64,000 nt of DNA from NCBI RefSeq assembly GCF_000027125.1, contig NC_017626.1. One strand, written 5' to 3'. The notes beneath the pieces are model-generated. The model saw nothing but the letters and a program-made list of their open reading frames with translations, did no database searches and was not told the origin of the DNA. Below, piece after piece: positions 30,216-30,249 of the stretch. This DNA comes from Escherichia coli 042. Lineage in GTDB: Bacteria; Pseudomonadota; Gammaproteobacteria; Enterobacterales; Enterobacteriaceae. Each line of letters starts with the position of its first letter. Positions within the stretch are counted from its first letter, which is position 1. The translations under genes were made by a program, and so were the position numbers.

Positions 30216-30249
30216 CCCCTCGTCCCTCCGGGGAGAGGGTGAGGGGAAC
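30216..30249. repeat. GC-rich imperfect palindromic intergenic element (family recurs at 63611..63650)
   Basis: CCCCTCGTCCCTCCGGGGAGAGGGTGAGGGGAAC. Confidence 0.4.

Follow-up and report, generated by a model that had tools for sequence, protein, structure and literature searches.

Two intergenic regions of a 64-kb stretch of Escherichia coli 042 DNA (64,000 nucleotides, hereafter the window), one after uvrB and one between glnP and glnH, carry nearly the same GC-rich palindromic blocks. The original prediction took them for a small repeat family of their own, separate from the REP/BIME copies elsewhere in the window and possibly acting as terminators or mRNA-stability elements, which raises the question of what this repeat is and whether its hairpins do anything for the neighbouring genes. 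By sequence comparison, both sites are copies of BoxC, a family also published as PIT, TMECO and HPG1. A second family distinct from REP/BIME is indeed present, and it is one that has been known since the 1990s; the two sites were correctly recognised and are ordinary members of it. Our explanation taken as a whole, namely BoxC copies that have decayed to a Watson-Crick hairpin and have the putative roles considered below, appears very likely.

Kinship of the two sites and identity of the repeat

The element after uvrB (site A, 30216-30249) reads CCCCTCGTCCCTCCGGGGAGAGGGTGAGGGGAAC and that in the glnH-glnP spacer (site B, 63611-63650) reads CCCCTCACCCTAATCCTCTCCCCAGAGGGGAGAGGGAACT. Their gene setting is as originally described: ORFs and the annotation of 100%-identical E. 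coli genomes (e.g. strain 118UI) place uvrB at 28125-30146 (+), yvcK/ybhK, convergent with it, from 30293 (-), glnP at 62881-63540 (-) and glnH (-) from about 63679, and both copies are intergenic. The RefSeq annotation of K-12 gives no repeat features at the uvrB-ybhK or glnH-glnP loci. The related sequence is wider than these two segments, and at site A it belongs to an insert of about 30179-30285.

The two copies lie in opposite orientation, with the C-rich arm first on the plus strand for copy A and on the minus strand for copy B, and are alignable only when one of them is reverse-complemented. Local alignment then gave a score of 34, compared with a mean of 13.7 (sd 2.2, maximum 29) for 3000 random 71-mers of the window and a maximum of 31 for 3000 shuffles of the core, and the exact string GGGGAGAGGG occurs in the 64-kb window only at these two sites. 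A profile HMM was trained on 13 BoxC paralogs that come from other loci and other strains, excluding the window sequence and its orthologs; ten of the 13 are K-12 copies listed in Table 1 of Holder et al. With nhmmer, this profile matched copy A at 30202-30251 (+) with E=9.3e-12 and copy B at 63657-63611 (-) with E=1.1e-11, and the third-best match in the window had E=0.32, so that only two sites are significant. The near-identity of the blocks claimed for the two sites is thus upheld by alignment and profile alike. Chance likeness of two GC-rich hairpins, to which such short elements of low complexity (C-runs and G-runs) could lend themselves, is left with practically no probability, given that the score exceeds all 3000 random and all 3000 shuffled controls, that the HMM comes from independent training data and that thousands of paralogous matches exist across E. 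coli genomes. Two other candidates in the window were rejected as family members: CCCCTCACCC at 44002-44011, which lies in coding sequence without partner blocks, and the hairpin at 61990-62015 (CCTCCCTTTC/GGAAAGGGAGG), a separate structure of unrelated sequence just beyond a REP pair (BIME) that occupies 62040-62150 between glnQ and the next gene and is itself unrelated to BoxC.

The REP pattern was found in the window only at 48861-48894 and 62052-62085. Copies A and B do not conform to the REP consensus (a GCCGGATG...CCGGCCTAC palindrome with terminal GTAG/CTAC) and the cores are unrelated, in agreement with the proposed distinctness, although BoxC resembles REP/BIME elements in being intergenic, palindromic and transcribed and shares some outer flank motifs with BIME-1-like elements. 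The REPs of one such BIME-1-like element lie at about 48796-48826 and 48861-48894, and its linker gives an Rfam match to the ES036 (CssrF) sRNA (48818-48860, -); this match may reflect the repeat linker and not a distinct sRNA gene.

When copy B was used as the query in a genome-wide search, 5425 of 5426 E. coli genomes contained matches, at a median of 15 places each; 78,782 of the places were on chromosomes and 48 on plasmids. Paralogs are found at fimH-gntP, lptG-yjgR, gcvP-ygfF, trmJ-iscR, pstA-pstB, tauD-hemB, adk-hemH, fepB-entC, fabI-ycjD, aaeR-tldD, frlR-yhfS, zntA-tusA, yihR-yihS and yjdP-phnP, and they share the tight consensus GTGCnCGGACGGTC-CCCTCGCCCC-TyT-GGGGAGAGGG-TTA-GGGTGAGGGG-AACAG. 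A canonical BoxC consists of three blocks, CCCTCGCCCC-loop-GGGGAGAGGG-TTA-GGGTGAGGGG, in which the C block can pair with either G block. BoxC is said to have been first noted by Bergler et al. in 1992 and catalogued by Bachellier et al. in 1999, and PIT elements reportedly appear in Hoyne and Maher in 2000.

Holder et al. 2015 (PMC4666352) trace the element to the 1990s, when it was described for the first time under the name BoxC, and credit Maher's group with its rediscovery as PIT; their own name for it is TMECO, and they give 23 copies for MG1655. Its G-rich half corresponds to the HPG1/HPG2 G-quadruplex motifs of Kaplan et al. 2016 (PMC5100583), and the exact core string is printed in both papers. 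In PMC2267715, BoxC figures among the known E. coli families, with a length of 56 bp and 32 copies. Neither uvrB-yvcK nor glnH-glnP is in Table 1 of PMC4666352 or Table 1 of PMC5100583, and the supplementary files of both papers make no mention of glnH, glnP, uvrB or ybhK. Neither site has a relevant Rfam match at the gathering threshold or at permissive ones; the strongest hits below threshold belong to unrelated families, with E of at least 0.08. Both the motif search and the comparison with described intergenic repeat families, which the original prediction had suggested, lead to BoxC/PIT/TMECO.

Like BoxC at large, a strictly intergenic, GC-rich imperfect palindrome with about 15-30 dispersed sites per chromosome, the window copies have the same core and proximal flanks (GTGCnCGGACGGTC ... 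AACAG). Copy A departs from it by the absence of TTAGGG (6 bp) and by a C that has become T in the C block; in copy B the C block is the CCCTCTCCCC variant, and a G of the middle block has become A. The type A core of PIT/TMECO, CCCTCGCCCC-N3-GGGGAGAGGG-TTA-GGGTGAGGGG, is the probable parent of both copies, but neither fits the consensus CCCTCNCCC-N3-6-GGGNGAGGG-N3-GGGNGAGGG; they correspond to the mutated TMECOs of Holder et al., which are still hairpin-capable. With HPG1/HPG2 they share the sequence family, their G-rich half being the HPG1 motif GGGAGAGGGTTAGGGTGAGGG, but each window copy has three G3 tracts only, so that the G-quadruplex rule does not hold for them. For annotation, the appropriate label for both sites is BoxC (PIT/TMECO), rather than terminator or new repeat family.

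Alleles of the uvrB-yvcK spacer and decay of copy A

E. coli strains differ at the uvrB-yvcK spacer, of which three alleles occur:

Empty allele: 37-bp spacer with the hairpin only; strains IHE3034 and AR_0067
BoxC allele: 146-152-bp spacer with an insert on the yvcK side of the hairpin; the window (30147-30292), 118UI, SW4848 and 21AH006
BIME allele: 191-bp spacer with a REP-linker-REP element (BIME-1-like) on the uvrB side of the hairpin; K-12 and FY10

The hairpin itself, at 30160-30176 (-) in the window, is present in all three; of 5426 E. coli genomes, 349 carry the BoxC allele. As an insertion, copy A is lineage-specific, and it adjoins the uvrB/yvcK terminator hairpin. The filled spacer of the window contains the following features:

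30160..30176 (-): separate GC hairpin CCGGAAGAACATTCCGG, then CTTTTTC; not part of BoxC (terminator consensus scan)
about 30179..30285 (+): whole insert with copy A, boundaries approximate (compared with the empty spacer of IHE3034 and AR_0067)
30202..30251 (+): BoxC core of copy A, as delimited by nhmmer
30216-30226 (+): C block of copy A, CCCCTCGTCCC (from the sequence)
30227-30229 (+): loop of copy A, TCC (from the sequence)
30230-30239 (+): G block 1 of copy A, GGGGAGAGGG (from the sequence)
30240-30246 (+): remnant of G block 2 of copy A, TGAGGGG, joined to block 1 through loss of 6 bp (alignment to 21AH006)

The flanks of the insert, CAGATTAACGATCAAGTCAAAAAAGTGCTCGAACGG on the left and a right flank ending in GTCAGCAATCTC (30274-30285), are similar to the flanks seen in BIME-1-like elements and in other long copies of BoxC.

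Strain 21AH006 carries the intact three-block form (...AGAGGGTTAGGGTGAGGGG) at uvrB-yvcK, from which the window and strain SW4848 differ by exactly the 6-bp gap (TTAGGG); the C block of copy A also has a C-to-T change, giving CCCTCGTCC in block 1. The alignment identifies copy A as a descendant of a canonical copy at this very locus, and the intact three-block ancestor would have undergone the 6-bp deletion and the C-to-T change. The same loss of TTAGGG has occurred independently at gcvP-ygfF in strain 23CRST007, where the K-12 copy is intact, and its recurrence at a second locus fits slippage between AGGGT repeats. The deletion makes copy A one long interrupted hairpin: in the predicted RNA fold, 30214-30228 pairs with 30235-30249 (-26.2 kcal/mol for a 57-nt stretch) to form an interrupted stem of 12-14 bp, and it is because of these interruptions that a repeat finder run on copy A alone reported no inverted repeat. 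Copy A, a polymorphic insertion without an evident role, is probably the neutral relic of a repeat that spreads, or is retained, in transcribed spacers beside hairpins.

Copy B in the glnHPQ transcript

On the strand of the glnHPQ mRNA, copy B and its surroundings are made up as follows:

63541..63678 (-): glnH-glnP intercistronic spacer, 138 nt, which holds copy B (ORFs)
63656..63672 (-): small hairpin ACGCCTGTAAGGCGC, immediately behind the glnH stop codon, preceding copy B in the mRNA (scan and comparison)
63611..63657 (-): BoxC copy B, glnHPQ mRNA strand, as delimited by nhmmer
63646-63637 (-): C block of copy B, CCCTCTCCCC (from the sequence)
63636-63634 (-): loop of copy B, TCT (from the sequence)
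63633-63624 (-): G block 1 of copy B, GGGGAGAGGA, with its last G changed to A relative to GGGGAGAGGG (from the sequence)
63623-63621 (-): TTA of copy B (from the sequence)
63620-63611 (-): G block 2 of copy B, GGGTGAGGGG (from the sequence)

Copy B lies within the glnHPQ transcript, directly after glnH and 70 nt upstream of glnP. It contains a perfect 9-bp GC-rich inverted repeat (63625-63633 / 63637-63645), and its predicted RNA fold has an energy of -29.5 kcal/mol for a 61-nt stretch. The K-12 copy has the same G-to-A change, as have all E. coli examined, and it is probably because of this change that Holder et al. and Kaplan et al. do not include the glnH-glnP copy in their tables. At an identity of at least 95%, 5400 of 5426 E. 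coli genomes contain the spacer with copy B as one uninterrupted stretch, and no empty allele was found among those sampled; copy B is fixed in E. coli. The small hairpin at 63656-63672 is abolished in K-12 by three substitutions, with the adjoining BoxC stems identical in both strains.

The spacers of other Enterobacterales were reached via GlnP homologs, with one genome per genus. The HMM found no BoxC in the sampled glnH-glnP spacers outside E. coli, and in every other enterobacterial lineage sampled the spacer holds a different strong stem-loop:

Enterobacter hormaechei MAG and a relative with 94% GlnP identity: REP-like palindrome (by eye)
Klebsiella pneumoniae: other GC hairpins
Pantoea: hairpin followed by a T-run
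Yersinia proxima: ERIC-like element (by eye)

Elements of the REP and ERIC/IRU kinds, judged by eye, thus occur at the position that BoxC takes in E. coli, although ERIC differs from BoxC in sequence and in size (about 127 bp).

REP hairpins in malE-malF and hisJ-hisQ protect upstream mRNA, and copy B resembles REP/BIME elements of this kind in standing directly after the periplasmic-binding-protein gene of an ABC-transporter operon. By analogy, copy B, transcribed directly after glnH, could act as a protecting hairpin, that is, as a 3'-exonuclease barrier or a weak attenuator in the glnHPQ mRNA that would raise glnH relative to glnPQ; we offer this as a tentative possibility. Alternatively, copy B may sit in a spacer that tolerates any stem-loop element. 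The presence of different stem-loops in the same spacer across lineages fits a mRNA-protecting hairpin and a permissive landing site equally, and the glnH-glnP spacer is a convenient system for asking whether stem-loops are selected as mRNA-protecting hairpins or are simply tolerated. To our knowledge, no effect on mRNA stability has been demonstrated for any BoxC copy, and the mRNA-stability reading is plausible for copy B only.

RNA structure prediction, which the original prediction had also suggested, returned strong hairpins for both copies with the energies given above, and both are predicted to be hairpin-capable as RNA or as single-stranded DNA; these energies are only modestly better than those of dinucleotide shuffles of the same GC-rich sequence (z about -1.8). 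BoxC copies are reported to have no strand, gene-orientation or gene-class bias (PMC4666352, PMC5100583), and the lack of an orientation bias argues against an orientation-specific RNA role. The GlnZ sRNA was considered as a partner of copy B and rejected: its published target, through which it represses glnP, is the glnP-proximal end of the spacer just upstream of the glnP Shine-Dalgarno sequence, and this pairing site is outside BoxC.

Origin, action at the DNA level and termination

As to where the repeat comes from, BoxC could be the payload of a MITE-like non-autonomous element that shares the outer frame of BIME-1 and inserts beside terminator hairpins. The window copies would then be insertion products whose effect on the cell is incidental, which concerns origin and is compatible with the explanation preferred here. 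Several observations point in this direction. At uvrB-yvcK, the empty and the filled site are cleanly distinguished, and the BIME-1-like element of K-12 is inserted on the opposite side of the same hairpin. Five long BoxC copies, together with the element at about 48770-48925, start 0-5 nt from a locus-specific terminator hairpin. Long BoxC copies and BIME-1-like elements also share the motifs TGATGACAAAnnnAAAA on the left and GCACnnnGTCAGCAAT on the right, with mean local scores of 8.41 for left flanks (random-segment null 5.55 +/- 0.35) and 8.06 for right flanks (null 6.25 +/- 0.29), figures that concern motifs noticed post hoc in a small sample in which the BIME-1-like elements were window 48770-48925, window 62020-62150 and the K-12 uvrB-ybhK allele. 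In addition, the exact 23-nt core occurs with lineage-specific flanks in many distant bacteria. Against these stand the lack of a consistent target-site duplication at the loci compared, where a possible one (AACCGTGT) was seen at pstA-pstB only, and the restriction of the flank motifs to a subset of copies. Moreover, we know of no transposase associated with BoxC and of no RAYT association. No link to mobile elements was found in PMC4666352 either, and we regard the MITE-like origin as rather doubtful.

In the window, the flank-motif stretches are 30179-30201 and 30252-30285 for BoxC and 48770-48800 and 48895-48925 for the BIME-1-like element, and the flank ends are, by eye, weakly inverted-repeat-like (CAGAyTGATGAC vs GAGATTGCTGAC). 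The exact 23-mer, GGGGAGAGGGTTAGGGTGAGGGG, nearly always follows TCCCCTC[G/T]CCCC and a short loop in very distant bacteria. It is present in about 30 copies in Pseudomonas sp. dw_612, where the left flank resembles that of E. coli, and also in Asticcacaulis, Azospirillum, Methylovirgula, Bradyrhizobium and deltaproteobacterial and Desulfotomaculum MAGs, with lineage-specific flanks; a wide distribution of the element had already been reported in PMC4666352.

The sharing of flanks and the distant copies suggest a mosaic, possibly mobile origin. A more far-reaching form of this idea has BoxC and BIME-1 as alternative payloads of one mosaic system, whose elements would share outer flank motifs and be deposited directly next to terminator hairpins already in place; what the uvrB-yvcK spacer shows would be two independent insertions, one to each side of its hairpin, BoxC here and REP-IHF-REP in K-12, and the near-invariant core of 34-36 nt in very distant bacteria would reflect recognition by a widely distributed enzyme or host factor, not selection for a triplex or G-quadruplex. 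In this general form the idea seems unlikely to us.

Action at the DNA level, as advanced by Holder et al. 2015 and Kaplan et al. 2016, would have a single-stranded triplex or G-quadruplex stall polymerases, promote rearrangement or switch nearby regulation. As a canonical single strand, the element forms a stable intrastrand triplex (PMC4666352) or a G-quadruplex (PMC5100583) in vitro, and TMECO loci were more variable than controls among 56 strains (PMC4666352). The uvrB-yvcK spacer is itself hypervariable, with its three alleles and a raised substitution density at the gene ends that flank it, which agrees with the local variability around these motifs in PMC4666352, and the same 6-bp deletion has arisen at two loci. 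This variability could, however, stem from repeat insertion instead, and in vivo DMS footprinting detected no triplex (PMC4666352). The TMECO expression given above has no match in the window on either strand: copy A fails it because blocks 2 and 3 are fused and block 1 contains CCCTCGTCC, and copy B because of GGGAGAGGA in block 2. Likewise, the G-quadruplex expression (G3+N1-7)x4 has no match anywhere in the window, each copy having three G3+ tracts. Both copies are, by these patterns, decayed forms that keep only the Watson-Crick hairpin, and with the required blocks damaged, the triplex and G-quadruplex models are poorly applicable to them. Copy B is, moreover, among the most stable spacers of the species (5400 of 5426 genomes). 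We consider action of this kind at the two sites improbable. Since both copies have lost the triplex/G-quadruplex features, yet one is fixed while the other stands in a hypervariable locus, they form a natural pair for asking whether the third block is needed for instability.

The proposal that the hairpins are intrinsic (rho-independent) terminators, for uvrB or yvcK at one site and for glnH at the other, did not hold up and is highly improbable. It draws on the position of GC-rich hairpins downstream of genes and on the hairpin and T-run that Pantoea bears at the equivalent glnH-glnP position. It is unsupported here because both BoxC hairpins are without a following T-run, whichever strand is read; neither was called by consensus scans for terminators and promoters, and the operon continues beyond copy B with glnP and glnQ. 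The tests of Maher and colleagues, as related in PMC4666352, likewise gave no sign that the elements act as promoters or terminators or affect RNA polymerase. The sole terminator-like site in the uvrB-yvcK spacer is the hairpin at 30176-30160 (-), which would serve yvcK. Just downstream of yvcK, at 31466-31610 (+), the window also holds a full-length Rfam match to the Moco riboswitch (102.9 bits), which presumably leads the moa operon.
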